A stretch of DNA of 63,995 nucleotides, filler included, from Chrysochromulina tobinii (Eukaryota): NCBI GenBank assembly GCA_001275005.1. It is 7 parts of 7 records of this genome, joined end to end, with 100 filler letters (N's around TTAATTAATTAA, not from the genome) between each part and the next. Parts side by side here need not be neighbours in the genome. Positions count along the whole stretch, not along the records: positions 5,941 to 22,185 come from JWZX01000807.1; 6 more parts are not named here. One strand, given 5' to 3'. Below are positions 11,185 through 62,793 of the stretch, piece by piece. The position numbers were made by a program, and so were the translations under genes. Below the pieces are notes generated by a model that saw only the letters and a list, made by a program, of their open reading frames with translations, did not search any database and was not told where the DNA came from. Each line of letters opens with the position of its first letter. The first letter of the stretch is position 1.

Positions 11185-14100
11185 TTACTCCGAGTCTCGG
11201 AAGAGTCCCGGAAGGCTCAGATTGCTGCCGAGATTGTTTGACGAGGCTGCCCTTCCTAGGAGCGCACGCCGCTGCAGCGCGCCGGTACGACGCGCGATCT
11301 CCCTCACGACCTGGTTGCGCTGATCGACGGTCAGTACCCCCTCCTGCATGGCCCAGTCGATGGCCTCGAGCGCGACGCCGTCAGAGCGTACCGATGAGCG
11401 GGAGAGCATGACCGCCTGGTTGTGATGGCTGATGGTGATCGTCATCGGCTTCTTGAGCCCAAATAAGGGTTCGAGCTCAAACGGCTCACCATCGACCTGC
11501 ATGGAGCATGCGATGAGGGAGGCCATCAGCATGCAATCAGGGAGGCCATCAGCATGCAACGAGGGAGGGTCATCAGCATGTGAGGGAGGCCATCAGCATG
11601 CAATGAGGGAGGCCATCAGCATGCAATGAGGGAGGCTGCGCATGCAACGAGGGAGGCCATCAGCATGCACGAGGGAGGGCCATCAGCATGCAACGAGGGA
11701 GGCCATCAGCATGCATGAGGGAGGCCATCGACCTGCATTGGCAAGCGCGTCGTGCCCTCCTGCGTGATGGTCACTGACGAGGCTTGGCAGAGACGGTGCG
11801 CCGATCCCTTGACAAGCTGTGTGCATGCAGACACATGCAGGCGCAGTCAGGCACACTCAGAGGCAAGCATAGGCAAACAGAGGCAATCAAGAGGCAATCA
11901 AGAGGCAATCAGACATCCTCGCAGAGAATCAGAGGCCATCATAGGCAATCGGAGGCCATCAGAGGCCATCAGAGGCCATCAGAGGCATCAGAGGCCATCA
12001 GAGGCCCAAACATCTTTCATGATAAGGCAATCAAAGGCAATCACCTGCGCGAGCCCAAGCTGCAGCACGCCCTTGATGGCGACCACCTCCAGCAGCCGAT
12101 CGTCCATCGAGGCGCTGACGAACCCTGACGAAACCAGCAGCCGATCGTCCGTCAAATGCCACGACGCGTCGCTGAAGCTCTTCGTGCGAGATCGCATCCC
12201 CCCCGCAGCTCCGCCGGAGCTCCCGCCCGCGAGATCGTTGCGAGATCGCATCCCGCCCGCAGCTCCGCCGGAGCTCCCGCCCACGAGATCGTTGCCGCAA
12301 GCGCTGCCGGTGCTTCCGCTCCGCACGTGCCTCGATGTCGATGCGCCGCCGCCGCCGCCGCCGCTGCCGCCGCTGCTGCCGTTACCCCTGCTGCTGCCGC
12401 TGCTGCTGCTGCTGCACCCAAACGGGTAGACGCCGGAGGCACTCGAAGGGCGCGGCGGCCCGAAGCCAGAGCTCACGGAGCGGCCGCGCACATCCCGTCC
12501 AAAAGCGTCATCAGCATCCGCCGCCGCCGCCGCCGCCGCTGCCGAGACTGCCGCCTCGGCGTACTCGTCGGACTGGTCGGGAGAGTCCATAGAGAGTCTT
12601 CGGTCCGTAAAGTCCATGGAGCTCGGGCGAGACATGGCGCGCGCCGACAAGTTATCCCCCGACCCCCCCATGCGGACACGCGCACCGATGGTGCTGTCTC
12701 GCCCTGCCGAGCACTCCCCTCCATCGCCCCCCTCGGGGGCCAGCTGGTGCGCAGAGGCGGTGCGGGAGGGCATCCGGGACGAGGCCTGAGAGGCACGGCC
12801 GCTCGTGGAGGCTGGGGCGGCGGACGGCGACGGGTGGACTTCCTCGTCGTCATCCCACTCACCTGTGAACGAGGGGGAAGGGGCGCCGTGGTGAGCACTC
12901 GCATGCAAGGCACGGAGGTCTCGTCGTCATCCCACTCACCTCCCCACAGGTCTGTTCCACCTGCATAGGACGCTATGTTGAGCACGATGATGCCCTCTGT
13001 GCCCTCGGGCAGCTCGTACCTGCCCAGAGGTGATCCAAGGCAATCAAGTGTTCCCATTCAATCCGAACCAATGCCATGCAATCCAATGCAATCCAATGCA
13101 ATCCAATGCTCGTACCGCTTCCCATCAGCGATCACCGTCAACTTCTTGCACACATGCTTGAAATCGCGACCATGTAGCAGCTGGCGCGCGCCGTAGCGCA
13201 GGTACATGAGCTTGTTCTTGAGGACGTTTGTGAATTGGTGCGGCTCCGACTGCCAATCAGTGGCAATCAGTGGCAATCAGTGGCAATCAGTGGCAATCAG
13301 TAGCAATCAGTAGCAATCAGTAGCAATCAGGCGCGGCTCCGACTGCCAACGATTGAGCCGTTCGAGACCTCGGTCAATGGTACTCAATGGCACTCAGCCA
13401 GGGCGCTCACTCAGTGGCACTCAGTAGCAATCAGCGGCACTCAGTGGCACTTACCTGCCGACGATTATGCCATTCAAGCGCCACGTTGGCATCCACACCT
13501 GTGGGGGGGGCGCCGTGGTGAGCACTTGCATGCTTGAGGAGCGCCACGTTGGCATCCACACCTACGCCAAGGTAAATCTGCATCGTAACCGTGACTGAAT
13601 CAGTAGCAATCAGTAGCAATCAACGGTTACCTACGCCAAGGTAATTCTGCATGATGATCTTACGAGCGGGTCGACGAGTATCACTCCCGCGCTCGGGACG
13701 ACGCTCGGGAGCCGTGATCAAGCTCTTGGCCACGTGGCTCTTGGCGACGCTCTTGGCGACGCTCTTGGCGAGGCTCTTGGCGACGCTCGGGCGGGGCGGA
13801 GGGACCGTTGCGTCCTCAAAGGCCACCTGATGAGGAACGTCATCCAGAGGCACTCAGAGGCACTCAGAGGCACTCAAGGGCGTGGTACAGTCTTCGAAGG
13901 CCACGTGGTTTAAGGCGAGCCGTTCCCTTTCGTGAGGGTCATCAGTGGTCATCGGAGGGTCATCATTAGTCATCGGAGGTTCATCAGTAGTCCTTAGAGG
14001 TCCTCAGAGGTCCTCAGAGGTCCTCAGAGGTCCTCAGACGTCCTCAGAGGTCCTCAGAGGTCCTCAGAGGTCATCAGCACACCTCCCAACGATCGAGCAG

Positions 14101-14931
14101 TGCCACTTGAGCAGAGTCAACCTCCTCGAGGAGATTGACGAAACTGCGTCCCATACGAGTGCCACCGCCCCATCCGAGCGCACGCGCAAGGTCATTCCCC
14201 GTGCCCAGCGGCAAGATGGCCACGGGCGGCGTGTACTCGAGATGTGCATTGTCCAGGAGGGAGAGCACCCAGCCTACGGTGCCATCGCCCCCACACACTA
14301 AGACGCGGAAGCGGCCGACAGTGCGGAAGGACTGGAGGGCCTGCTCGGCGTGCCCCAGCGACAAGTCCACCACCTGGTGCGCCGAGAGCAGCGCCTTGAG
14401 CTGCACGAGCGTTGCCTCGCCTTGCCGACCACCGCTGCCTCGGTTGATGAAGACGAGCAGCGGCGTGCGATCTCGCGCAACCTCCGCCGAGGGGCGATAG
14501 GTCCATGAGTTCTGCCAGAGCTGCGGCTGCAACGTCGGCGTGCGCAGCTCCGCTATGCTGTGGCGCACGCGCTGCGCGAGCGACGCGGCGCTTCGCAGCC
14601 GGAGCTTCTCCGAAGCGGCTTCGGCGCCCTTGGCTGGGGGGCTCGTGGGTGGCGTCGCCTCGCCAAAGTCGAGCAGCTGCTCGGGAAGGATGAGCCGCCA
14701 GAGGCGGGCGCGCGCCTCTTCCAGCTGCCGTGGATCAAGGTCGGGCGGCGTCGCTTGCGCGTGCATGATCGAGATGAGGTAAATCAGCGCGAGCGTGGCC
14801 GTGAGGAGTGCGATTGTCATGAGTGGCGGTGGGTCCGAGATCACCACCGGCTCGGGCTGTCGCGGCCAGGCAGCCAGGTCGGCGTGTGCAAATGGAGGGC
14901 CCACCATGCCGCCGTCCGCGAGTTCGTCCAT
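11185..14931 (-). CDS. DGK: Diacylglycerol kinase, 8 exons, ~838 aa (14931-14083, 13826-13631, 13498-13455, 13249-13116, 13019-12940, 12862-12045, 11816-11733, 11496-11185)
   Basis: Motifs PLLVFINRGSGG, GGDGTVGWVL, LPLGTGNDLAR, MQNYLGVGVDA, LNIASYAGG, DDRLLEVV and PMQVDGEP; all GT-AG introns, and phases join into one frame. Confidence 0.92.
12863..12910 (-). repeat. Shared intron 3' module TGCATGC..GCTCACCACGGCGCC-Y-rich-CACAG (representative copy, DGK)
   Basis: Other copies end at acceptors 13499, 18472, 19633, 19713, 20564, 20637, 22057 (ends AAG), 31507 and 31970. Confidence 0.9.
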
Positions 14932-17159: not shown

Positions 17160-20100
17160 TTACATTGAATTCAGGAGGACGATGACCACAACTACCACGA
17201 GAACTACGCAGCACACGCCGCAGCACATGGCATACTTCTTGAAGAAGAAGAATGGGTTGAACAGATTGAAGTCGATGCCCAGCCCGTCGAAGAACGAGGG
17301 GCGCACCGGGTTCGGAAGGAACGGGTGTTGGTTTGGCGGGTCACGTCCCTGGCCCACAGGGCGCTGGATCGCCTCGTATCTCGGGATGAGCTCGATCGTG
17401 AGGCGCACCGTGCCCTGATTGCCCATGTAATTCGGGTGCGTCGTCTGCACGAGCACGTTCTCCCTCTTCACACCGCCGCCGCGCCGCAGCGCCAGTTCAC
17501 AGATGGTCTTGAGCGTCAGTTGCGCCTCGCCGATGGCGTCGTTGGACGAGAGGATGTCGGCGTCCCAGAGCTGTATGAAGAGCCTCGGCGACTTTTCGGG
17601 CAGTGCCATCGGCCAAACCATCCGCCAAAAGAACTCCGCATCTGATGAGGGAGGTCATCAAGAGGCCATCAAGAGGTGATCCAGAGGCAATCAAGAGGCG
17701 ATCAAGAGGCGATCAAGAGGCGATCAAGAGGCAATCAAGAGGCGATCCAGAGGCAATCAAGAGGCGATCAAGGCAGCACGAACCGCCAGGCGATCGGTGG
17801 TGCACGTCCGTCCTGAGCATCGAATAGGGCTGGTGGCCGTGCGGTGTGATGGCTACGAAGACGTCCGACGTGCCACCGCCGCCGAAGAAGGACTCGTCCC
17901 GCGCTTGGACGTCGATCGCATCCCACACGATGACACGCAGCTCGAACATGTCGGTGGTCGGTGGCTCGATCGGGACCATCGGCTGGGCGATCGCGTACCT
18001 GATGAGAGAGGCACTCAAAGCTGATGAGTGAGGCACACAGAGCTGATGAGGGAGGCAATCAGAGCTCATCGGCTGGGCGATCGCCTACTTCTTCTCCAGG
18101 ATCTCAATCTTGCACACGATGAAGCCCTGGAAGAGGGGCAGAGGGGCATGCGCAGGGGGGGTGAGTGGCAATCAAGAGCAATCCATCGACGGAGTGGCAA
18201 TCAATAGTAATCAATAGCAATCCAGAGCAATCAAGAGCAATCCATCGACTGAGTGGCATGGACCGGGGGGCTCAGCGGCCACCAAGAGCAACCACGTGGC
18301 ACTCCATCTCACCTGCGCGTTCGTATTGCCAGGGTTGGTGAGCGGCCGCATCTCCTTCGGCAGCGCGTCGTTCTGCTGCTTGGTCTTCCACGTCTCAGAA
18401 AAGTAGCGGTCCTCGAGGTCGATGACCGTCTTGCCCAGCAGCGATTCGCTCAGCAGCTGGTAGTCCCATACCTGTGGGGGCGGGCGCCGTGGTGAGCGCG
18501 TGCATGCTGGGGGCTGGGATCGAATCCCTCCTCGGAATCACACACCTCGAGATGTAGCCGAGATTGGGTCATCAGAGGTCATCAGAGGTCATCAGCACAC
18601 CTCGAGATGTAGCCGAGATTGGCCGGGCAGGATCGCCGACAGCTCGAAGGATTGGTAGAAATCGGGCTCGAGCGAGGGCGGCAGCGCAATGTCGCGCGTG
18701 GTGCGCTCCTGACCCTCGACGTTGTAGACCTTTAGGAAGGGCTCGGGCTCTTTTCCACCCGCCCTCGGGGCGAGTGACGTGGCGCCATACACATGCACGC
18801 GCACGCGGCACGGCTTCTCGGCGAAGAGCTTACGCAGGTTGGCCGGAGGGTCCTCTTTGAGAAAGAGCTTGAGCTCCTCATCCCCCTCATACCTGATGAG
18901 GGAAGCCATCAGAGCTGATGAGGGAGGCCATCAGAGCTGATGAGGGAGGCCATCAGAGCTGATGAGGGAGGCCATCAGAGGTCATCAGAGGCAATCAGAG
19001 CTTGAGCTCCTCATCCCCCTCATACCTGATGAGGGAGGCCATCAGAGCTGATGAGGGAGGCCATCAGAGGCAATCAGAGCTTGAGCTCCTCATCCCCCTC
19101 ATACCTGATGAGGGAGGCCATCAGAGGTCATCCGAGGCCATCCGAGGCCATCCGAGGCAATCAGAGGCCATCCGAGGTCATCCGAGGTCATCCGAGGTCA
19201 TCAGCAGTCATCCGAGGTCATCCGAGGTCATCCGAGGTCATCCGAGGTTATCCGAGGTCGTCCGAGGTCATCAGCAGCGCTCGTACTTGATGACGCGCAG
19301 CTTCATCTTGAGCAGCCCCTGGGAGCGCGCAGGCCTCCCGAATTTGATCGGGAATAAGTCGCGCGCAGTCTGCAGCCCCTTGGCGAGAAGGTTCTGCTTA
19401 TACGAGGACGTGGTCGACTCGGGTGCTTTCATCGAGAGAGGGAACAATTGGAAGGGCAGATCATCTTCGAGAAGCTTCTCCATAGGATAGGGCAAGATCT
19501 CCTCCTCTGCCGCACGCGCTTCTTCGTCCTCCTCCTCTTCGCCCCCACCCTCGTCCGGTCCATCGCCTGGCGCCGGCGCGGCGGCCGCGCCCTCCTGCAG
19601 CTCCGGCATCTCGATCGTGCGTGGCCCCAAACCTGTGGGGAGAGGGAGCGCCGTGGTGAGCATCCATTGCATGCGTGCAGCTCCGGCATCTCGATCGTGC
19701 GTGGCCCCAAACCTGTGGGGAGAGGGAGCGCCGTGGTGAGCATCAGTTGCATGCGTACCTGGCACCGGCGCGACATTCTTTCCCGCCGAGACACTGAGCG
19801 CCTTTGAGCCGTTGGTGGCGCGCGCGACCGACGAGAGGAAGAGCTCATCAAGCTTCTCCTGCGTGGACAGAGGCGGAATGCGAGCACTCAGTGGCTGAAT
19901 GCGAGCACTTAGTGGCCATCAGAGGCCATCAGCGGCCCTCAGCGGCCCTCAGAGGCCATCAGAGGCCATCAGAGGCCATCAGAGGCCATCAGAGGCCATC
20001 AGAGGCCATCAGAGGCCATCAGAGGCCATCAGAGGCCATCAGAGGTCATCAAAGGCGCTCCCTACCTCGTTAGGCGACTTGACGATTTGGAAATGGCCAC

Positions 20101-22166
20101 CCTGCACCTTCTCCTTTTTGATCTTCTCGTCCCGCTCCTTCTCCTTCTTCTGCGCCTCCTCCTCCGCCTCCTTCATCTTGCGAGCCTTGGCCTCTTTGAT
20201 CTTCGCCTGCTCTTCGGGCATGTGCTCGAGCAGGTTGATGGCCGTGATGCCCATCACCGGATCCCAGTCATCGCCCACAAACGGGATGATCTTGCCTGAT
20301 GGCAAGGGCAATCAATGGCAATCAATGGCGATCACGAGCTTGCCTGCTTCGCGCACGCGTACGCCCATCCACCCTGATGGCAATGGCCATCAATGGCAAT
20401 CAATGGCCATCAATGGCCATCAATGGCCATCAATGGCCATCAATGGCGAGCGCAAGCTTGCCTGCTTCGCGCACGCGTACGCCCATCCACGGTGTGTAGA
20501 GCTGCGGCTGCGTCGGCAGTAAGACCTTAAAGTATCGGGTCTCGAGGATGTTGATGTCCGTACCTGTGGGGAGAGGGCGCCGTGGTGAGCACTTGCATGC
20601 AAGGCCTCCGGGTCTCGAGGATGTTGATGTCCGTACCTGTGGGGAGAGGGCGCCGTGGTGAGCACTTGCATGCAAGGCCTCCGGGTCTCGAGGATGTTGA
20701 TGTCCGTACCCGTCCGAAGTTGCGTCCCCGTGATGGACGAGCCGTGGTCGGGGATGCGCCATTCACGCTCCTCGGCTTGCTCATCGCCGTACTCAAACTC
20801 AACGTATCTGATGAGGGGGGCAATCAATGATGTCATCAGCGGCCATCAGTGGCCATCAGTGGCCATCCGAGGCCATCAGAAGCCCATAGAACGTACGGCG
20901 AAGTGAGGAAGCAATCAGAAGCAATCAGAAGCAATCAGAAGCCATCCGATGCCATCAGAAGCCAATAGAACGTACGGCGAAGTGAGGAAGCAATCAGAAG
21001 CAATCAGAAGCCATCCGAAGCCCATAGAACGTACGGTGAAGTGAGGAAGACGGGAGCCCCGAGGACCTCTCGCGGTGCAATCACGGGGTAATCACGGGGT
21101 AATCACGGGGTAATCTCGTACGGCGAAGTGAGGAAGACGGGAGCCCCGAGGACCTCTCGCGGTGGCACGTCGCGACAGCCAACCAGCTGCACCTCGATCA
21201 CGTACGGCCGCATCTCGGGCCGCAGATAGCCCAGTGCACTCACGCCCTCCGTCAGATGGTACTTCGAGAGCTTCGCCGCCTGAGAGCCGCATGCACACAG
21301 TGGCACTCAGTGGGCACTCAGAGGGCACTCAGAGGGCACTCAGCGGGCACTCAGCGGGCACTCAGCGGGCACTCAGAGAGCACTCAGAGAGCACTCAGAG
21401 GGCACTCAGAGGGCACTCAGTGGCACTCAGTGGGGCAATTAGAGACGCAATCAGCGCTCCTCACCTGGGAGGAGAGGTCGACGATGGCAGCACTCTTCGT
21501 GCCATCCGGTGCGTCAAGGCTCTTGGGTGGCTGGTAAGCCCGCAGCTCGAAGGAGCAGAGAAGGAACCCGACGGGGGTCGGGTCATCATCCCCGCCAGCA
21601 TCGAAGTCGAGCTCGGCAAACTTGGGATCGTACAACGGCATCCATGTGGGCTCTCCCGCGCTCCTGATGAGGGGGGGGCAATCAGATCTCATCAGAGGTC
21701 ATCATCAGATGCAATCAACGGCATCCATGCGGGCTCTCCCGCGCTCCTGCTGTAGAAGACCGACACGTACTTAGTGTACGGCCATCAGACGCAATCAGGC
21801 GCAATCAGGCGCAATCAGGCGCAATCAGACGCAATCAGACGCAATCAGACGCAATCCGTCGCCATCAGCAGCGCAAGTACTTGTTGTAGAAGACCGACAC
21901 GTTTTTGGTGTACGGGCCGCTCGGGGCTAATGTACGCCCCATGACAGTGTCACTTGGAGCGAGGTCCTGAAGCGCAGAGAGGCCAAAAGCGGCGCCCGCG
22001 TCGTAGACGCAGACCGAGACCTTTGAGGCGAACGTGAGCTCGCCCGGGAGATGCACCTTGAGGGAGGGGAGGGGGGGTGGCGCCGTGATGAGCACATGCA
22101 TGCTGGGAGATACACCTTGAGGGCGAGCTCCCCGGGAGATACACCTTGAGGGCGAGCTGCTGGTAC
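17160..22166 (-). CDS. Ferlin-family multi-C2-domain tail-anchored protein, 3' part, at least 14 exons, 5' end truncated
   Basis: Motifs LGKTVIDLEDRYFS, FELRVIVWD, TDVHHRS..FFWRMVWP, IQLWDADILSSNDAIGE, GQGRDPPN..LPNPVRP and a C-terminal TM helix. Introns 17642-17783, 17999-18088, 18127-18312, 18472-18600, 18893-19286, 19633-19758, 19859-20065, 20296-20461 (GC-AG), 20564-20709, 20808-21121, 21280-21464, 21664-21880 and 22057-22144 give a consistent frame. Confidence 0.88.
20564..20709 (-). repeat. Intron made of two identical 73-nt units (28-nt downstream-exon copy plus 45-nt 3' module)
   Basis: Exact tandem repeat; removing it restores ...LRTG|TDINILETRYF... Confidence 0.9.
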
Positions 22167-22285: not shown

Positions 22286-25200
22286 TGGTTCGAGCGGCCG
22301 CGCCCCCGCCGGCCGCGCCCCCGCCGGCCGCGCCCCCGCCGGCCGCGCCGCCGCCGCCGTCCGTGCCCATGCCGCCGCCGTCCGTGCCCATGCCGCGGGC
22401 CTCGTGCCCATGCCTACCTATGGCACCACCGTCCGACTCTGCCTTCAGCGGAACTGCCTTCGGTTTCATGGCTGGGGGCAATGGCGGTGGCGGCAGCGCC
22501 CCTGTGTCACCGTCGACCGCTGTCGGCGACTCTGCCTTCGGCTTCATCGCCGCCGCTGAGCCGTCACCGCCGCTGGTTTCGGCCTTCGGCTTTTTTGATG
22601 GCGGTGGCGGCAGCGCCCAGGTATCGCCGTTGGGCGGTGGCGGTTCTGCGTTCGGCTTCATAGATGCTCAGCGTGCGGCGGCTATCGCTGCGAGCCTCGA
22701 CATCTCCAGCCCTGTAAACCAAACCTTACCACCACCTTTGCAATTCTTACCACCCGCGCAATCGCCACCTATGGGGCCGTCACTGTGTGTGTGCTGAGTG
22801 ATCATCATACGTGTGCGTGTGTGTGTGCGCAGCAGCAGCAGTACGGTCAATACGGCGGCGGCGGCGGGCAGTACGGCCAGCCGCAGCAGCCGCAGTTCGC
22901 CGCCGAGCAGTACGGTCCATACGGCGGCGGCGGCGGGCAGTACGGCCAGCCGCAGCAGCCGCAGTTCGCCGCCGAGCAGTACGGTCAATACGGCGGCGGC
23001 GGCGGGCAGTACGGCCAGCCGCAGCAGCCGCAGTTCGCCCAGCCGGAGAGCAGTACGGTCAACACGGCGGCGGCGGCGGGCAGTACGGCCAGCCGCAGCA
23101 GCCGCAGGTTCGCCCAGCCGGCAACCCACGAGGTGCGCCCGATTCGCGTGCAATCAGAGGTCATCAGATGTATTCAGAGACCCTCAGCAGGCCTCACCGG
23201 CCTCAGTGGCACTCAGAGGCTATCAGAGGTCATCAAAATCAATCAGAGACCATCATTGGCGATCAGTGGCCATCAGTAGCCATCAATTGCAATCAGTGGC
23301 AATCAAGAAGGCACCGGGTTCCAAGATTGCCCCGATGGCCACGACGCGTGCTGAGCGTGCGCCGTGTGCGTGTGCGTGTGCGCGTGTTCGCAGCACTTGC
23401 AGGCGACGCCTGGGCAGTCAGCGGCGGCTGCGGCCAAGGCGGCGGCGGACAAGGCGGCGGCGGCGGCAAAGGCGCAGCAAGAGGCAGACGACGCTCAGCT
23501 TGTTGCAGCTCTCGCTGCGAGCCTCGCCATCTCCGGCCCTGTCCCACCACCTCCCCCGCCATCTCTAGCCGGACCGAGGCTGGTCATGTTGCCACTTTCT
23601 TGCCAAACGGCGGAGCGCCTCGTAGTCAACACGGATCCTCTCATGCCCCAGAGGACCCCTTCGGAGCGTATAGCAGCAGACCTCGGCATTCCAGTTGAGG
23701 ACGTACGGGCAAGCCTCGTCGCGGAGCAGGTACGGGAGGACCGCCTCGCAGTTGAGGACGTACGAGCGAGCCTCGTCGCAGTCGAGCACGGCGGGAGTGG
23801 CCCTGAGTGCGGAATGGCCTCTTCCGCCAGCGTGAGGCCGAGCTCGGAAATGTACGACGACATGGACCTCGAGGACCTGAAAGAGCTCGCTGGAAAACGT
23901 GGCATCAAAGTGGTAGGCAAAGGCTGGGCCACATGCTGCCCGCCGAACGGGAACAAAGCGGACATCATAAAGGCACTTGAAGCAGAGCCGCCTGCGCCAC
24001 CCGCGCCTCCGCCGCCGCGACCTAAGCCCCCGCCGCCGCGACCTAAGCCCCCGTCGCTCTGGGAGCCTCCGCCGCCTCCGCCACCCGCATCACCGCCGCC
24101 GAAGAAGAGGGCGTCCGTCGTGCACCTGAGCGAGCACCAGGCGCTCCCGAAACTCGTGGCGCTCGACAAGCCGCTCGTCGACGCGCTCCGCTCGAGCGCC
24201 GTCAAGCTCGTCGACGCCGACCGCATCCGCGACGGCACCATTGCAAAGATCATGCGCCGGCAGGACCTCGAACAGTTCGAGCGCGAGCGCGGAGTGCGGC
24301 TCTTCTTGTCGCCCGAGCGCTCGATCGAGGTGCACGGCAGCTACGAGCGCGAGATCGCCTCGCTGACGTACGGATGGGACACCCCCGACGGCGACGACCC
24401 GACGGGCGAGTACCTGGCCGCGGTCCGCCGGTACCTGCTGAGCGCCTTGGGCGAACACGTGAAAGGCGTCTTCTGGGACTGCCCCTGCCTGCCGCAGGAG
24501 CCGCGCAGCGCGAGCGAAGAGGCGGTGTTCGGCGAGGCGCTCGGCGTGATGGCGCTCACGTACGCGTCGGTGCTCTCGACGACGGTGATCCGGCACACCC
24601 GAGTCCCCGCCCGCCCCGCGTGTCTCGACGGGGTGGTCGTGGTTTACGGCGGCGCGGTGACCGAGCAAGACGTGCGCAGCGGGCTCGCCAGCCACGGCGC
24701 GCTCGCAAGCGTGTGGCGCGACGAGAAGGTCAACCGGTGGCGCGCGCGGTTCCAGAGCCACGCCGAGGCCGAGCGCGCGGCGGCCAGAGGGCAGGCGATT
24801 GTCAACGGCGCGACGCGCCTGCAGACGCTCCACGTCCCGCGCCCGTATGGCGCGCGCGGATGGTGCTGTGAGGAGACCGGCGTGGCCACCGAAGGGGTCG
24901 CTCAGAGTGCCTACTTTCCGAAGCTGAAGGCGATCCTCGACCGGCTGCCGCCCAAGTTGGTCGACATTGACGGCGCGGCGCCCGAGGCGGCGCGCGAGCA
25001 GTACGGTGGGAGCGAGGGCAGGGCACCTCGCATCGAGCGCGTGCGCTCGAGCATCCGGTCGGCGGCCTTTTCGAGCGAGGCCGACCGTGCGAAGGTCGTG
25101 AAGCTGTTCGATGACTACATCACCAAGATTGCCATCGCGATGGCGGGCTCGGGCGAGGGGCAGGCCGGCGAGTACGTCGGCGAGAGGAATGCGGCCGGGG

Positions 25201-44195: not shown

Positions 44196-44243
44196 TATAG
44201 GATTGCGCGATTCCCCCCCAGCACGTTTGCGGCTCCGAACCAC

Positions 44244-45233
44244 ATGGCGAACCGCACAGAGTACCTCGTAGAAGCATGCCTCTTCTCGGAAAACACCATC
44301 TTCATTCCCGAATCCTGTGCAGCGTGCTGCGGCTGTTACTCAGATAGCCTCTACTGCTGCTTTGTAAGCCGTAGCAAGAGGTGCATCTTCAAGGGCCATG
44401 ATGCATACCCCAGCCTTGTCGGGCACCGTGACGACGTCATCTGCATGAGCCAGGGCTCGTCCTACTTCGTGAAGCCGCTCTGCCTCACGGGCGAGAAGCC
44501 TGTGTGCATCGACGTTTCGTCAGGGTGTTGTTTCTCCAACCGCTACTCCTTCCCGCAGAAGAAAGAGGTGGTCTCCAAGATGAGGTACGCAGAATGCGGC
44601 TGCCAGATCTGCGAGGGCGGGGAGTGCGCACCGAAGTGCTGCACCACCGACGTGAAGCCCATCCAGTCGACGGCCTTCGGCGGCGTCGGCGTGCCCATGC
44701 ACAAGGTCAAGATCAACGAAGAGTACATCCTCTGCGCTGCCTGTTGCTGCATGACGACGATGTTCATTCCGGAGACGGACGCGGACGCGCATGGCGTCGA
44801 GGATCTTACCCGTTGCCTCTGCTGTGAGGAGGACATCAAGATTTCTATGGCTCCCGAGGCTCCGACGGACTACGCAGTCTATATTAACAACGTCTATCAA
44901 TTCGCTTGCATCTCGCCGACGACGTGTTGCAAGGGCACGAGACGAGTTTCCTGCATGATGAACAAGTACGCGTTCCCGTGCGATGACGAGGTGCCGTTTT
45001 CGATCGCGTGCTGCGGCCTCGTGCTCGTCGGTGAGAGCGCCAAGTTCAAGTCGCCCGCGCCCTTCCGCCCGAGCTCGGCCTCTCTCGTGGGAGGGGTGGA
45101 GTCGTCGTCGTCGAAGGGGGAGTACCTGCCATCTAATCTGGGGTCGAGCTTCATGTCGCAGCAGCACGGTGTCCCCGTCGCCGTCGCCGTCCCCATCAAT
45201 GGCGCGCCGGAGTCGACTGAGATGGAGCGCTAA
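44244..45233 (+). CDS. Cys-rich protein of unknown function, copy 1 (329 aa)
   Basis: Intronless ORF; near-identical paralog at 47731. Confidence 0.85.
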   Translation: MANRTEYLVEACLFSENTIFIPESCAACCGCYSDSLYCCFVSRSKRCIFKGHDAYPSLVGHRDDVICMSQGSSYFVKPLCLTGEKPVCIDVSSGCCFSNRYSFPQKKEVVSKMRYAECGCQICEGGECAPKCCTTDVKPIQSTAFGGVGVPMHKVKINEEYILCAACCCMTTMFIPETDADAHGVEDLTRCLCCEEDIKISMAPEAPTDYAVYINNVYQFACISPTTCCKGTRRVSCMMNKYAFPCDDEVPFSIACCGLVLVGESAKFKSPAPFRPSSASLVGGVESSSSKGEYLPSNLGSSFMSQQHGVPVAVAVPINGAPESTEMER

Positions 45234-46038
45234 ACCGCTCAACCAGCGAAAGCAGCGGGCGTGCCAGCGGCCCAACAGGTCAACGGGTCGACAGGAGATA
45301 TGTGTGACTCAGACGACAGAGCTCCTTGCGGGGCGGGCGCTGGGCGGGTCGAGCTGGCGGCTCCAAGGAGCTTGCATGGGAGGCCGGTGCGGTACTGTGT
45401 GGAGCGTGTGTTTGTGTAGTGAGGCGTGCGCGGGGCGGTGCGGCGCACGCGACGGCGCTGTCGTCGGCCGAGCCGCGAGCGCGAGGCGCATATTCCAATT
45501 TCCATGATATGCGGGCGAGCCGATGCCGCATCGGGGCCGCTCAACGGGGGCCCCGGCGGTGGCAGCGCGGGGGCGGCTTCGGTGGTCTCGTGTCGAGTCC
45601 TGGTGGAACGGATTTCTATTAAATGGTCAAAGACCGATTTCGTCTATCTGGTACATTCGTCGCATGTCGTGTGCCGCAGGCGCACGGCAGCCTGAGCGGC
45701 CGTTGGGACGCCATGTCGTCCCAGCGCGCCGTCGCGAGCGCGTGGAGCGCTGACGAGCCCGAGTCCGGAGGCTCCGCGTCGGCGTGCGCGTCGGCGTGTC
45801 GCGGCACGGGGCAGAGGACACTGGTGCCGACGACGCGGCGGATGCCCGACGGCGCGGGACGTGCGGCCCAATGAAGGTCTTGGGGGACGGGGCGACGTCT
45901 TGGGCGTTACCGTTGCTTCGGAGGCACCCCGGGGAATCCCCCGAGGTTACTCCTCACGAGCGCACAACGCCCAAGACGGCACCCCGGGGAATTCCCCGAG
46001 GTTACTCCTCGCGAGCGCACTCGACATGCGCATTTTGG

Positions 46039-46866: not shown

Positions 46867-47730
46867 TCGACCTGCGCGCCCCTTTCGCCGCGCGCCTTGA
46901 CGCGCGCGCGCTACGGAGGAGATGCGCTCGGACTCCCAAGTCGGGCCAGCTCGTGCCCGCGCAGCACGGATCGATGGCGCTGAGCGTGCGCGCGTGCTGT
47001 GCAGGTGCGGCGGCGAAAGCGCCGACGCAGCGCGCCGCGCGGCGCAACCGGCGCCGAATGTGGTGCCTCGGCCTGCGGCTTGACACCCACGGAGGCGGCG
47101 GCGGCGGCGGCGATGGAAGCTACCCGTGCTCGACACCGTCGTAATGCGACGGTGTCGAGTGCGTCTTTGCGTTCCCCACGGGGGCGCGCGCCATCGGGCG
47201 CGTCGGTACACGCAGGTTCGATGCCGCCGGCGTCTCCAACGCCGCCCCGACGGGCACGGTAGCAAGGAAGCGCATTGCAAGGCGATGTGGGATTGGGACG
47301 GCATCCAGAACCGGGGGAGGCGACGATGGCGCCATTGTCTCTACGCGCCGCGCCCCGCCATCTAGTTTCCACGCGCCGCGACCCGCCATCGTCGCCTCCC
47401 CGCCTGGTGCGTGTGCGTAACCCACAGAGGCGGCCTCGCACCGATGCCGGCCCGGCTGCGGCGTGCGCCGCAGGCCTGCGCCCGCCGCCGACCCGCCCGA
47501 CTACGTGGGAGGCGTCCGTATCCGGATAGGTGGCGTCCGCGGTTTCCGCTGACCGGGTCCGGGTGCAAGTTTTTGTATAGAGAGACGAAAAGAAAAGCGG
47601 GTCCCCAGCCCTCGCCCCCTAGGCCCATAATCGGAAACTCCGATTTCGGAACAATTAGGAGCATATATAAAATCCGGCACTCAGTCGGACTGCACGGACT
47701 CTGCACTATTTCTCTGCACGATTGCGGCAC

Positions 47731-48720
47731 ATGGCGAACCGCACAGAATATCTCTTTTCCGCATGCCTCTTCTCGGAAAACACCATCTTCATTCCCGAAT
47801 CCTGTGCAGCGTGCTGCGGCTGTTACTCAGATAGCCTCTACTGCTGCTTTGTAAGCCGTAGCAAGAGGTGCATCTGCAACGGCCATGATGCATACGACAA
47901 ACTTGTCGGGCAGCGTGACGACGTCATCTGCATGAGCCAGGGCTCGTCCTACTTCGTGAAGCCGCTCTGCCTCACGGGCGAGAAGCCTGTGTGCATCGAC
48001 GTTTGCTCAGGGTGTTGCTGCTCCACCCGCTACTCCTTCCCGCAGAAGAAAGAGGTGGTCTCCAAGATGAGGTGCGCACATTATGGCGTCCAGTGCTGCG
48101 AGGGCGGGGAGTGCGCACCGAAGTGCTGCACCACCGACGTGAAGCCCATCCAGTCGACGGCCTTCGGCGGCGTCGGCGTGCCCATGCACAAGGTCAAGAT
48201 CAACGAAGAGTACATCCTCTGCGCTGCCTGTTGCTGCATGGCGACGATGTTCATTCCGGAGACGGACGCGGACGCGCGTGGCTGCGAGGTGCTTGACCGT
48301 CGCCTCTGCTGTGAGATGGACATGAAGTTTGACATGGCTCCCGAGACTCCGACGGACTACGCAGTCTATATCGATAACATCTATCAATACGCCTGCATCT
48401 CACCGACGACGTGTTTCAAGGGCATGGCCCGAGTTTCCTGTATGATGATCAAGTACGCGTTCCCGTGCGATGACGAGGTGCCGTTTTCGATCGCATGCTG
48501 CGGCCTCGTGCTCGTCGGTGAGAGCGCCAAGTTCAAGTCGCCCGCGCCCTTCCGCCCGAGCTCGGCCGCTCTCGTTGGAGGGGTGGAGTCGTCGTCGTCG
48601 AAGGGGGAGTACCTGCCATCTAATCTGGGGTCGAGCTCCATGTCGCAGCAGCACGGTGTCCCCGTCGCCGTCGCCGTCCCCATCAATGGCGCGCCGGAGT
48701 CGACTGAGATGGAGCGCTAA
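47731..48720 (+). CDS. Cys-rich protein of unknown function, copy 2 (329 aa)
   Basis: Colinear paralog of 44244-45233. Confidence 0.85.
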   Translation: MANRTEYLFSACLFSENTIFIPESCAACCGCYSDSLYCCFVSRSKRCICNGHDAYDKLVGQRDDVICMSQGSSYFVKPLCLTGEKPVCIDVCSGCCCSTRYSFPQKKEVVSKMRCAHYGVQCCEGGECAPKCCTTDVKPIQSTAFGGVGVPMHKVKINEEYILCAACCCMATMFIPETDADARGCEVLDRRLCCEMDMKFDMAPETPTDYAVYIDNIYQYACISPTTCFKGMARVSCMMIKYAFPCDDEVPFSIACCGLVLVGESAKFKSPAPFRPSSAALVGGVESSSSKGEYLPSNLGSSSMSQQHGVPVAVAVPINGAPESTEMER

Positions 48721-48826: not shown

Positions 48827-50125
48827 CGTTGGAGAAGCTGCCCAATCCACTGCACTTGCATTGGGCCCGTGAAGCACATGCCCTCTGTGTCGTATCTTGC
48901 GCAGTCCATGGGCACGTTGATGACCCGTCTGAGCGTCGAGCCCGATGCTGTGGATGAGCTCGAGCCGACCAGCGGACCAACTGCAGCGGCCGTCTGCTGG
49001 GCCGCCAGCTGTGTGCCCGAGGGTGGGCCGGCCAGGGGAAGAGCTGCAGCGTCCATCTGCTGGGCCGCTAGCTGTGTGCCCGAGGGTGGCATCAGGGTCA
49101 GTGGTTATGGCATGGGCTGAAAGTATCTGAGCGCCAGGTTCTTCAAGTCAATGAGCTGGTCGAGCTGCACGGCAGCAGTCTTCGCCCTCTTCATCTCCTT
49201 TGCGCGCCCCTGTAGCTGTTGCAAGGTAGGCACACCTGCGAGGAGGAACGCACATAGGATACATACGAGATACACGTGGGATACATGCGGGATACATGCG
49301 GGATACATAAGGGATACATGTATCTGCAGCGGTTCGAGGATACATGTAGGATACATGCGGGATACATGAGGAATACATATAATGAGATACATGTATCTCA
49401 AATGTATCCGTAGAGGTATGTATCTCAGATGCAAGATACATGCGGGATACATGCGGAATACATGTATCCTCAGAGGTATCTGATATGAAGGCGACATGCG
49501 GGATACATGCAGGATTCATGCGAGATACATGTATCCTCAATGGCAATCAAGATACAATCGAGATACATTCTGGATCCATGCAAAATACATGCGGGATACA
49601 TGCGGGATACATGCGGGAAACGTGTCTCGGGGGTTTGGGGGAATGTATGGATGCCATCATGGAGAGCAGCGCACCTATCAGGCCACCCATGTCATGCTTG
49701 TGCAGAAGTGGGTCTGCTCCAGCACCCTCCAGCTCCTCTATCTTCTGCTTTGTCATGGCCACCCTTATCCCTGCTGGTTTACCGCCCTGGTCGAGCGCGA
49801 AGCGCACCAACTTCTCCTGCTGCACTGTAAGGGTTGAGTTGGCCCTCTTTTTCTCCTTTGGAATTACTCCATGGGACCCTCTGCCCTGGATCATGTAAAA
49901 ATCATTGACTTGGACCACCCTCAGCTCACGCTGGCAGTCTTCATGCCCATTGCACTGAAAGTTGGATCTGGTGCGGCCATTACCTGGGTGAGTCACATGC
50001 CATTTCCACATCCCTCCTTCTAGGGTCTTGAGCAGTGTTTGGCCTTCCTTCATACTCCCCAGGTCTCGTGCGTTTACTGGAAGCCACACTTTGGAGGAGT
50101 TGGAGCGCGGCGTGGGTCGCATCAT
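48827..50125 (-). pseudogene. Transposase-like N-terminal region; intron 49236-49674; in-frame TAA at 49105-49107
   Basis: Splicing gives LIG|VPTLQQLQ; the same frame resumes after the TAA and runs to the gap. Confidence 0.45.
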
Positions 50126-51012: not shown

Positions 51013-51411
51013 GGGTTAGGATACATTGTATCTTAAATGTATCCTGAATGTATCCTGAACGTATCGTAAAGAAGGATACATATCCCTGGTTAAGATACAT
51101 TTCCAATGATGCCAAAGTCACAGATACAATTGTATCCTGATGTATCTCGATGTATCCTGATGTACATGTACGGGACACATCAAGATACGATCAGGATACA
51201 TGCAGGATACATCAGAATACATCGGGATACGTATCCGATAGGAAACCACCCCCAAAAAGGATAGGAAACCCCACGTGACCCGGCAGCGCCCAGAGTTCAC
51301 ATGACTCGTATCCGCCAAAACACAGGACACTGAGCTGCGTGTTGAGTTTGCTATCAGGCTGGGCTACTCAAATCAATCTTCATACAATCCGAGTTCGCTT
51401 AAGGGTTGAGG

Positions 51412-61302: not shown

Positions 61303-62793
61303 ATGTCGAGATCGAGCTGCGCACTACTCGTCGTCGGCGCGGCGGTGGTCGCCGGTGCTTTCACCGGCGGCGGCCTTTCCGTGGTCGTGCGCTCTCCGGT
61401 GGCAGCACTACGTCGTGCCGCCGTCAGCCCGACAATGGAATTCATTCCTGGCGAGACGTGCACCGGGGAGCGTGTGGCGGTTGTCGGCGCCACTGGATAC
61501 ATTGGCAAGGCTGTTGTTCGCGACCTGGTACGACGAGGCTATCCAACGAGTGCGGTGGTGCGCGATGCCGCCCGCGGTGCTGCTGAGCCCAAGTTCGAGG
61601 GTGCCACCATCGTCGAGGCCGACGTGTGCGACCCGAGCAGCCTGGCCAAGAGTGCTGCCTTCAGCAAGGGAGGCGTGGACGTCGTTGTCAGCTGCCTGGC
61701 GAGCCGCTCGGGATCGAAGAGCGACTCGTTCGCCATCGACTACCAGGCCACGCTCAACAGCCTCAACGCCGCGCGCGCGGCCGGCGCGCGCCACTTTGTG
61801 CTGCTCTCGGCCTACTGTGTCAAGTCGGCGGAGCGCAGAGATCCGTACGCGTTGCAGTTCCAATACGCAAAGATGAAGATGGAGGAGGCGCTGCGTGCGC
61901 AGAGCGACATGACGTACAGCATCGTGCGCCCGACCGCCTTCTTCAAGTCCGTCAGTGGGCAGGTGGAGGTCGTCAGCGGCGGTGCACCCTTTGTCTATTT
62001 TGACCTCGGAGGCTCACCGTACAAGTCATCACACGGCGACGGTAAGTGCGCCGCGTGTAACCCTATCTCGGAGCCCGACTTGGCGGCCGCGCTGGTGGAC
62101 ACGATCGCCGACCCGTCGAAGTGCAACGCGCTGTGGAATCTCGGAGGGCCCGACGTCGGCCTCTCGATGCGCGAGCAAGGCGAGCTTGTGGCGGACGTTC
62201 TTGGGAAGGAGGAGGCGAAGCTGCTTGGCGTACCGATCGGCATCTTCGATGTGATCATCAACGGGCTGCAGGCGAGTGCCCTCTGAGTGCCGCTCTGATG
62301 GCCAATGATTGCCTCTCGTGACCACTGATGGGCGACTGTGCTCATCCACGGGCTTCAGTTCTTAGCTGACACGTTCAAGTCCCCGAAGCTCGAGGATGCT
62401 GCCGAGTTCGGGCGCATCGGGCGCTACTACGCGATCGAAGACATGCTGACCACCGACCCGTCCGAAAAGTACGCAGCGCATGCTTCTGATCGCCTCAGAA
62501 TGCTGCCCCTCGGAGTGCCCTCTAATTGCCCTCTAATTGCCCTCTAATTGCCCTCTAATTGCCCTCTAATTGCCCTCTAATTGCCCTCTAATTGCCCTCC
62601 GAGTGCCCTCCGAGTACCCTCTGATTGCCAATGAGTGCCGCTGAGTGCCTTCCTCATCAGGTACGGTCGCACCACGCTGCGCGAGCACTATGCACGGATC
62701 GCAGTTGAAGGTCAGGAGTATGATCCGTACACGAGCATGTTTGGTAGCAAGAAGGCCAAGGAGGACTTCGCCAAGCAGGCCAAAGGCGTGTGA
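61303..62793 (+). CDS. DVR: Divinyl chlorophyllide a 8-vinyl reductase, plastid-targeted, 403 aa (exons 61303-62271, 62359-62468, 62661-62793)
   Basis: [65 protein letters not shown]; signal peptide with an AF motif; one GC-AG and one GT-AG intron. Confidence 0.92.

Follow-up and report, generated by a model that had tools for sequence, protein, structure and literature searches.

The host gene and the layout of intron D2

The window, i.e. the whole stretch of 63,995 nt of Chrysochromulina tobinii DNA analysed here, carries on its minus strand (11185..14931) a gene coding for a diacylglycerol kinase (DGK), identified by Pfam matches (DAGK_cat, E 6e-26; DAGK_acc, E 3e-4) and by frame continuity, with 838 stop-free codons after removal of seven introns. 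Its nearest named protein relatives are haptophyte proteins (73-74%). Three protein matches at 100% stop at intron 1 and give no isoform information, and a protein query containing the second exon, seeking isoform-bearing proteins, returned no match. One of the seven introns, D2, is built as follows, the evidence being given in brackets:

13631..13652, minus strand: end of the upstream exon (X), from which the unit 1 copy derives (sequence)
13499..13630, minus strand: D2, a 132-nt GT-AG intron, removed whole (RNA joints skipping 132 nt in contigs of runs X1 and X2; homologue spacing)
13625..13630, minus strand: used donor GTAACC, predicted to be paired in a stem (RNA joints; folding prediction)
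13584..13630, minus strand: filler 1, made of 10-mer repeats that include the branch-like word CTGAT, with an 8-nt inverted repeat at its borders (sequence, fold)
13562..13583, minus strand: copy of the upstream exon end (X'), with the internal TAG at its end; decaying (one fixed mismatch; substitutions in allele L013)
13540..13561, minus strand: exact copy of the downstream exon start (Y'), with the internal GT at its start; donor-like (sequence, donor score)
13499..13533, minus strand: shared acceptor cassette, i.e. GCATGC, a CTCAC branch-like word (A at 13519), a C run and CAG (10 aligned copies)
13455..13498, minus strand: downstream exon Y, 44 nt (RNA joints; transcript contig L005)

An earlier note on this DNA had described two units set back to back around an internal AG/GT in a 132-nt intron, and the description is exact in every part. 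Unit 1 (13630-13562, 69 nt) consists of GTAACC, 47 nt of filler in all (13630-13584) and 22 nt that repeat the end of the upstream exon with a single mismatch, while unit 2 (13561-13499, 63 nt) begins with 22 nt identical to the start of the downstream exon, followed by 6 nt and the 35-nt cassette up to CAG. The middle 44 nt of D2, between the two fillers, are thereby a rebuilt version of the intron's own spliced exon-exon junction, and with the AG or GT on the other side of the junction included, each duplication measures 24 nt. Under a composition model, both copies would fall in register by chance with a probability of about 3e-22. Translation agrees with the note that unit 2, being 63 nt long and stop-free, would add 21 codons if kept; retention of unit 1 brings in an in-frame TGA.

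Filler 1 contains an 8-nt inverted repeat (13630-13623 with 13592-13585) and is predicted to fold into a 13-pair stem (z -1.76; 9 of 200 shuffles equally good), in which the used donor of the window allele has a predicted unpaired probability of at most 0.1 over positions +1 to +6. The internal GT is likewise mostly paired in the predicted fold. The folds of the whole of D2 and of unit 2 are no better than those of shuffled sequences (z -0.24 and -0.55, respectively), and Rfam gave no match at 13300-13800. The outer donor and acceptor of D2 are intact in the DNA and no splice signal is interrupted, so that the intron does not qualify as a stwintron.

A metagenome scan returned 29 loci, 20 of which were not DGK matches and were dropped. 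Seven of the 29 belong to the same species and both units are present in all seven, three of these contigs (L006, L019, L029) being identical to the window over 3 kb and hence not independent. Such recurrence, together with the unspliced contigs of runs X15 and X19, rules out an assembly artefact. No allele with one unit or with none was found among the seven same-species contigs. In L013 (96.9% identical) a G to T change at 13562 turns the internal AG into AT and two further changes affect X', the true donor, the cassette, the acceptor and the adjoining exon ends being unchanged. The AG is lost in one of two divergent alleles, or one of seven contigs, this being a single contig of unstated depth, and is kept in L023, X19 and the rest. 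The L013 allele class is real, since its variants at 13728 and 13746 recur in the X15 or X19 runs; the base at 13562 itself is read in one contig. Y' and the cassette are unchanged in L007, L013 and L023 except for the length of the C run. In one contig of run X15 (depth 7), three extra bases at 13565, in X' just before the internal TAG, represent further decay.

Concerning relatives, the genomic relative L012, which has introns of its own, has none at the position of D2. This points to a lineage-specific gain of D2, as judged from one genomic relative in which a loss would also be possible. A second sequence, L018, contains no intron whatsoever and may be a transcript; it was not counted as an intron-free genome. 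L012 also holds an 82-nt DGK intron (1727-1808) with a 25-nt duplication spanning its donor, a like scar outside C. tobinii.

The motif of the accessory domain is present in 108 of the 120 proteins listed, and in 90 of these 108 the spacing between the NY and NK landmarks is 31 residues, as whole removal of D2 gives (an expectation counted by hand). Among the remaining 18, 15 lack the second landmark and three have 50, 59 or 60 residues; the spacing of 52 residues that an extra 21 would produce occurs in none of the 108.

Acceptor cassettes and junction copies across the window

Splice sites and flank copies were compared over 24 hand-curated introns of four genes, with continuous frames in all four models and a leave-one-out matrix; four of the 24 are backed by RNA joints, and the set excludes at least two probable introns around 22.7-23.4 kb. 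All family counts below are within the 63,995-nt window. We found an internal copy in register with the intron's own junction in 10 of the 24 introns, against 0 of 552 mismatched intron/flank pairs, and a copy at the intron end in 9 of the 24, against 1 of 552. Flank copies range from 8 to 43 nt. The internal joints read AG/GT in six introns, AG/GC in one, and AG/TC, AG/GA and CC/GT in three others. As these last three of the ten lack AG/GY and cannot be recursive, the copies are best seen as duplication scars, and the AG/GT in D2 simply repeats its host junction.

The AG/GA copy lies at 21664-21880, CC/GT occurs three times at 20808-21121 and AG/TC lies at 13250-13454, all on the minus strand; the longest copies are 31-43 nt.

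The 35-nt cassette occurs ten times in the window (0 in 100 shuffles), with 21 invariant columns, in eight introns of three genes. All ten copies are intronic, although introns make up 4.1 of 63.5 kb, and all are in sense orientation, end at AG and are followed by GT. Similarity is limited to about 35 nt: the 5' parts of the introns are locus-specific copies and fillers, with no whole-intron similarity, and the cassette ends do not match each other, i.e. there are no terminal inverted repeats. The downstream exon begins with GT at all 8 of the 8 cassette introns, and at 6 of the 16 remaining introns (p 0.006); this would follow if the acceptor comes with the cassette and the GT is taken from the host. 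The introns most relevant for comparison with D2 are:

13250..13454, minus strand: D3, the next intron, of the same build, with its internal copy at AG/TC, which cannot regenerate a donor (control); removed whole in X1, X2 and L005
12863..12939, minus strand: D5, a single-unit cassette intron, i.e. a 20-nt copy of the downstream exon and a cassette (RNA joints, sequence)
18472..18600, minus strand: F10, a two-unit intron in a ferlin-like gene, i.e. filler, exact 22-nt exon-end copy, GAG/GT, cassette (sequence)
20564..20709, minus strand: F5, two identical 73-nt cassette units abutting at CAG/GT, the window's best recursive candidate (sequence, scores)
19633..19758, minus strand: F8, cassette units of 46 nt and 80 nt abutting at CAG/GT (sequence, scores)
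18893..19286, minus strand: F9, a 394-nt intron with two internal full-strength CAG/GT sites (sequence, scores)
32052-31970: T1, single-unit form
31585-31507: T2, single-unit form

The internal sites of F5, F8 and F9 are full acceptor copies followed by GT, score 13.9-15.0 bits and carry the published recursive motif, and the parts that would be retained are not multiples of three. On sequence and scores, these three introns are better candidates for recursive splicing than D2.

A second element family with CTGATG/CATCAG terminal inverted repeats was considered and not established, both ends occurring in only 3 of the 24 introns. Viral contigs yielded one cassette match, at a contig end (L030) and likely in host DNA, and no evidence of a viral vector. 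The ferlin-like gene (17160-22166, minus strand; C2 and Ferlin_C domains) has at least 13 introns, mostly with flank copies or 10-11-nt repeat arrays. In a GC-donor intron at 20296-20461 (minus strand), an acceptor-like internal CATCAG and the GC donor lie on either side of a 30-nt in-frame exon-end copy, possibly a duplicated micro-exon. Many other open frames of the window look intron-free by eye, with intron gains clustered.

Removal in RNA and the strength of the internal site

The RNA evidence consists of assembled contigs, which drop rare forms. The whole 132 nt of D2 are skipped, with GT-AG ends, in contigs of both RNA runs that bear on it (X1, depth 8.7; X2, depth 6.0), where D1, D3 and D5 are likewise skipped with GT-AG ends. 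Joints skipping 69 nt or 63 nt are absent from the 15 joints listed from these contigs, 54 others lying beyond the listing. As one-step and two-step removal yield the same mRNA, whole skipping limits recursion without excluding it. A 62-nt X1 contig joins the 3' end of unit 2 to the downstream exon (depth 7.8, the spliced form having 8.7); at this length it does not reveal whether unit 1 is attached, and it fits whole retention as well as a +63 form. Whole retention does exist: L005, a metagenome transcript contig, corresponds to the window minus D1 and D3 with all 132 nt of D2 kept and neither half-spliced D2 junction present, and can therefore explain the 62-nt contig. Unit 1 has zero cover in the X1 and X2 contigs, which was not used as evidence by itself, and a narrow contig placement (X1, X3, X4, X5; 96% likeness) has no cover over 13544-13587, nor over the upstream exon, and is hence uninformative. 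Contig depth over the cassette reaches hundreds to thousands, against about 10 nearby, which suggests many copies and is not to be read as a copy number.

L005 retains D2, D4 and D5, all three with a copy of the start of their downstream exon. Unspliced D3 and D4 occur in X1 too, so that retention could be a general feature or the material could include DNA.

The internal site (TAG/GT at 13562/13561) has the letters YAG/GT and is a good donor behind a poor acceptor. The acceptors of the 24 curated introns are 23 CAG, one AAG and no TAG. For the internal TAG the score is -9.5 bits, whereas the 24 real acceptors range from -2.1 to 15.2 and the distal CAG reaches 7.9; among the six AGs within D2 it is the lowest, and it is equalled or exceeded by 86% of 91 exonic AGs. 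When the last three bases are left out, the internal site ranks between first and fourth lowest; with two of the three window lengths it then falls among the scores of real acceptors. Branch-like words do occur in unit 1, 39 and 49 nt before the TAG, with two other AGs in between, and the Y5+N0-4YAGGT motif given in the accessible text of PMC10156609 is absent there. By contrast with the acceptor, the internal GT scores 6.7 bits, above the 5.1 of the used donor (range of the 24 donors 0.7-11.0).

From these data we propose, with a probability of about 0.7, that D2, removed whole in the RNA contigs, contains in its internal AG/GT a fossil junction left by two successive insertions, each of which duplicated about 24 nt. 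The suggestion that repeated insertion at one site created the arrangement is supported by the two unlike fillers, the two 24-nt duplications and the like construction of neighbouring introns. The working zero-length exon that the earlier note had further proposed is not supported: only whole removal or whole retention is seen in the contigs, the internal acceptor is poor, and its AG is lost in L013.

True recursive splicing, in which unit 1 would be removed to the internal TAG and the regenerated AG/GT donor would then remove unit 2, is accordingly unlikely as the main route, though stepwise removal may occur as a minor one. The units are of intron size, CTGAT branch-like words precede a good regenerated donor, the 62-nt X1 contig could derive from such a process, and a precedent exists in a 336-nt intron of fission yeast, SPNCRNA.445 of S. 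pombe, described with a zero-length exon in the available part of 10.1101/226894. Against it stand the lack of a 69-nt skip among the joints listed, the weakness of the acceptor, its loss in L013 and the prevalence of conventional lariats in human introns below 1 kb (PMC10156609, accessible text). The same source describes human recursive sites over a range of intron sizes, and PMC5126111, in its accessible text, places recursive sites (ratchet points, zero-length exons, known from Drosophila and human) in long animal introns; the fission-yeast case makes the premise of the note, that such sites belong mainly to very long animal introns, too narrow. D2 resembles the recursive cases in having a YAG/GT within an intron that is wholly absent from mature RNA, but it lacks a 5-pyrimidine tract, its AG is not conserved among alleles, no intermediate is seen in the contigs, and its internal site is a copy of the exon junction.

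An origin by recombination or in one event, either an unequal crossover in the junction copy that fused different introns gained by two alleles at one AG/GT, or a single templated repair that made both copies, with single-step splicing, would yield an identical sequence, and the identical tandem units in F5, F8 and F9 show unequal exchange between direct repeats. We nevertheless regard it as quite improbable for D2, as the seven same-species contigs include no single-unit or empty allele and the copies in F10 differ greatly in decay, as serial events predict. Two-step removal from the 3' side seems slighter still. Here the internal GT and the cassette would be used first, with the upstream donor folded away, and unit 1 would then leave at a re-formed TAG/GT, in the manner of a nested or twin intron. 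The internal donor does outscore the used one, which is predicted to be paired, and unit 2 taken alone resembles the working intron D5; however, the internal GT is itself predicted mostly paired, no 63-nt skip occurs among the joints listed or in L005, and the pathway still requires the TAG acceptor that L013 lacks. The least credible alternative is an acceptor choice giving a functional kinase isoform with 21 extra residues, for although unit 2 is open and Y' and the cassette are preserved in three alleles, C-run length apart, no homologue shows the spacing, L013 has lost the AG, and the retained parts are multiples of three at only 3 of the 10 internal AG sites listed, as chance predicts.

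A proposed route of intron gain and its relation to known systems

Under the preferred reading of two successive insertions, a 41-nt piece carrying a branch point and an acceptor would first have been inserted after a GT in the exon, with a duplication of AG and 22 nt, making a 63-nt intron like D5. A repeat-rich filler would then have entered, and a duplication across that donor (22 nt and GT) would have shifted the working donor 69 nt upstream. Splicing of the resulting intron would take one step, in which a single spliceosome would bring GTAACC together with the branch point and the CAG of the cassette. The internal GT may compete as a minor donor, giving a product with a stop codon; the predicted donor stem would fit slow removal and retention. 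We lean slightly towards this order, cassette first and donor shift second, which agrees with the GT rule, with the weakness of the TAG and with F10. The opposite order, in which TAG would be an old acceptor later replaced by the cassette, is nearly as plausible and fits the greater decay of X' relative to Y'. Whichever came first, just one of the two halves of the internal AG/GT ever needed to function. Moreover, a duplication is harmless if one of its copies is intronic, so selection can explain the register.

More generally, short cassettes and flank duplications of 8-43 nt likely build introns in the window and stack on existing junctions. The variable duplication length and the fold-back filler suggest, presumably, templated break repair or a short retroposed piece over a cut-and-paste transposon. 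A tentative and rather doubtful extension would see here an undescribed intron factory of this haptophyte lineage, with long variable duplications, re-hit junctions and stacks of abutting 45-80-nt introns, removal being recursive where a full acceptor followed by GT forms the joint of the stack, as in F5, F8 and F9. If true, recursive sites would be born as a by-product of intron gain, in introns shorter than 400 nt.

Introner families are known in haptophytes (10.1101/2022.06.06.494994; PMC9860276; PMC12130899; 10.1101/2020.10.14.339549; PMC11282704). In the accessible parts of these sources each family has its own short, constant duplication length (2-8 nt), 10-nt direct repeats being noted for one family in E. 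huxleyi; for one freshwater haptophyte assembly the number of introner families is given as 0, and one haptophyte genome paper, in its available text, gives introns only as a mean count. Like the cassette, some introners, as there described, carry a 3' site and borrow the 5' site, and similar sequence in introns of unrelated genes is encountered here as well (8 introns, 3 genes). However, the duplications found here are 8-43 nt long and variable, only about 35 nt are common, the 5' part is locus-specific, and events stack on junctions. Unlike DNA-transposon introners, the introns here show no short fixed target duplication, and the cassette has no terminal inverted repeats, an 8-nt inverted repeat being present in filler 1.

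Two recognised routes of intron gain, tandem AGGT duplication and double-strand-break repair with flanking direct repeats (PMC3443670, accessible text), likewise involve duplicated exon sequence that supplies splice sites, and direct repeats that flank the intron; a cassette shared by many loci, and many sites without AG before GT, distinguish the present case. For fungal stwintrons in Lipomyces, a donor duplication of 4-7 nt has been proposed, with two-step excision demonstrated (PMC7138796, accessible text). D2 has in common with these a short complex intron, a duplicated donor and possible one- or two-step excision, but its duplications are 24 nt long and no two-step product is seen in the contigs. 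A literature search, mostly outside subscription journals, retrieved no account of long flank duplications combined with a shared cassette in haptophytes, and the cassette core word is absent from the accessible part of the published supplements, which may not list sequences. The pattern is a new variation on known routes of intron gain.

The origin of most new introns is still open, and the scars at D2 are readable: both flank copies, the shared cassette, the single-unit sibling D5, an intron-free relative and an allele without the internal AG. Screens that require whole-intron similarity would probably miss such introns. The weak internal AG of D2 and the full internal acceptors of F5, F8 and F9 form natural matched pairs that could test what makes an AG/GT recursive in very short introns. 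For D2 taken alone the result calls for caution, as an internal AG/GT that arose by duplication gives no evidence for recursion.

Several further repeats were noted in the window. Arrays of 10-11 nt built on CTGAT/CTAAT, a branch-point-like word, occur in many introns (e.g. 13254-13330, 19914-20056, 62516-62629), their unit number varying between alleles (10-40-nt gaps in L007, L013 and L023), and an array at 23153-23306 lies antisense within a probable plus-strand intron. In the coding sequence at about 12085-12150 (minus strand), a 17-nt direct repeat with 28 nt between its copies forms a 45-nt in-frame duplication-plus-filler that, by eye, is seemingly not an intron. Also by eye, 44240-45250 (plus) and 47700-48720 (minus) are diverged inverted copies of a cysteine-rich open frame separated by a 2.5-kb spacer. 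Finally, another 11-nt repeat family, with a GATACAT core, flanks an open frame at 49257-49618 and 51027-51231, and may represent element ends or introns.
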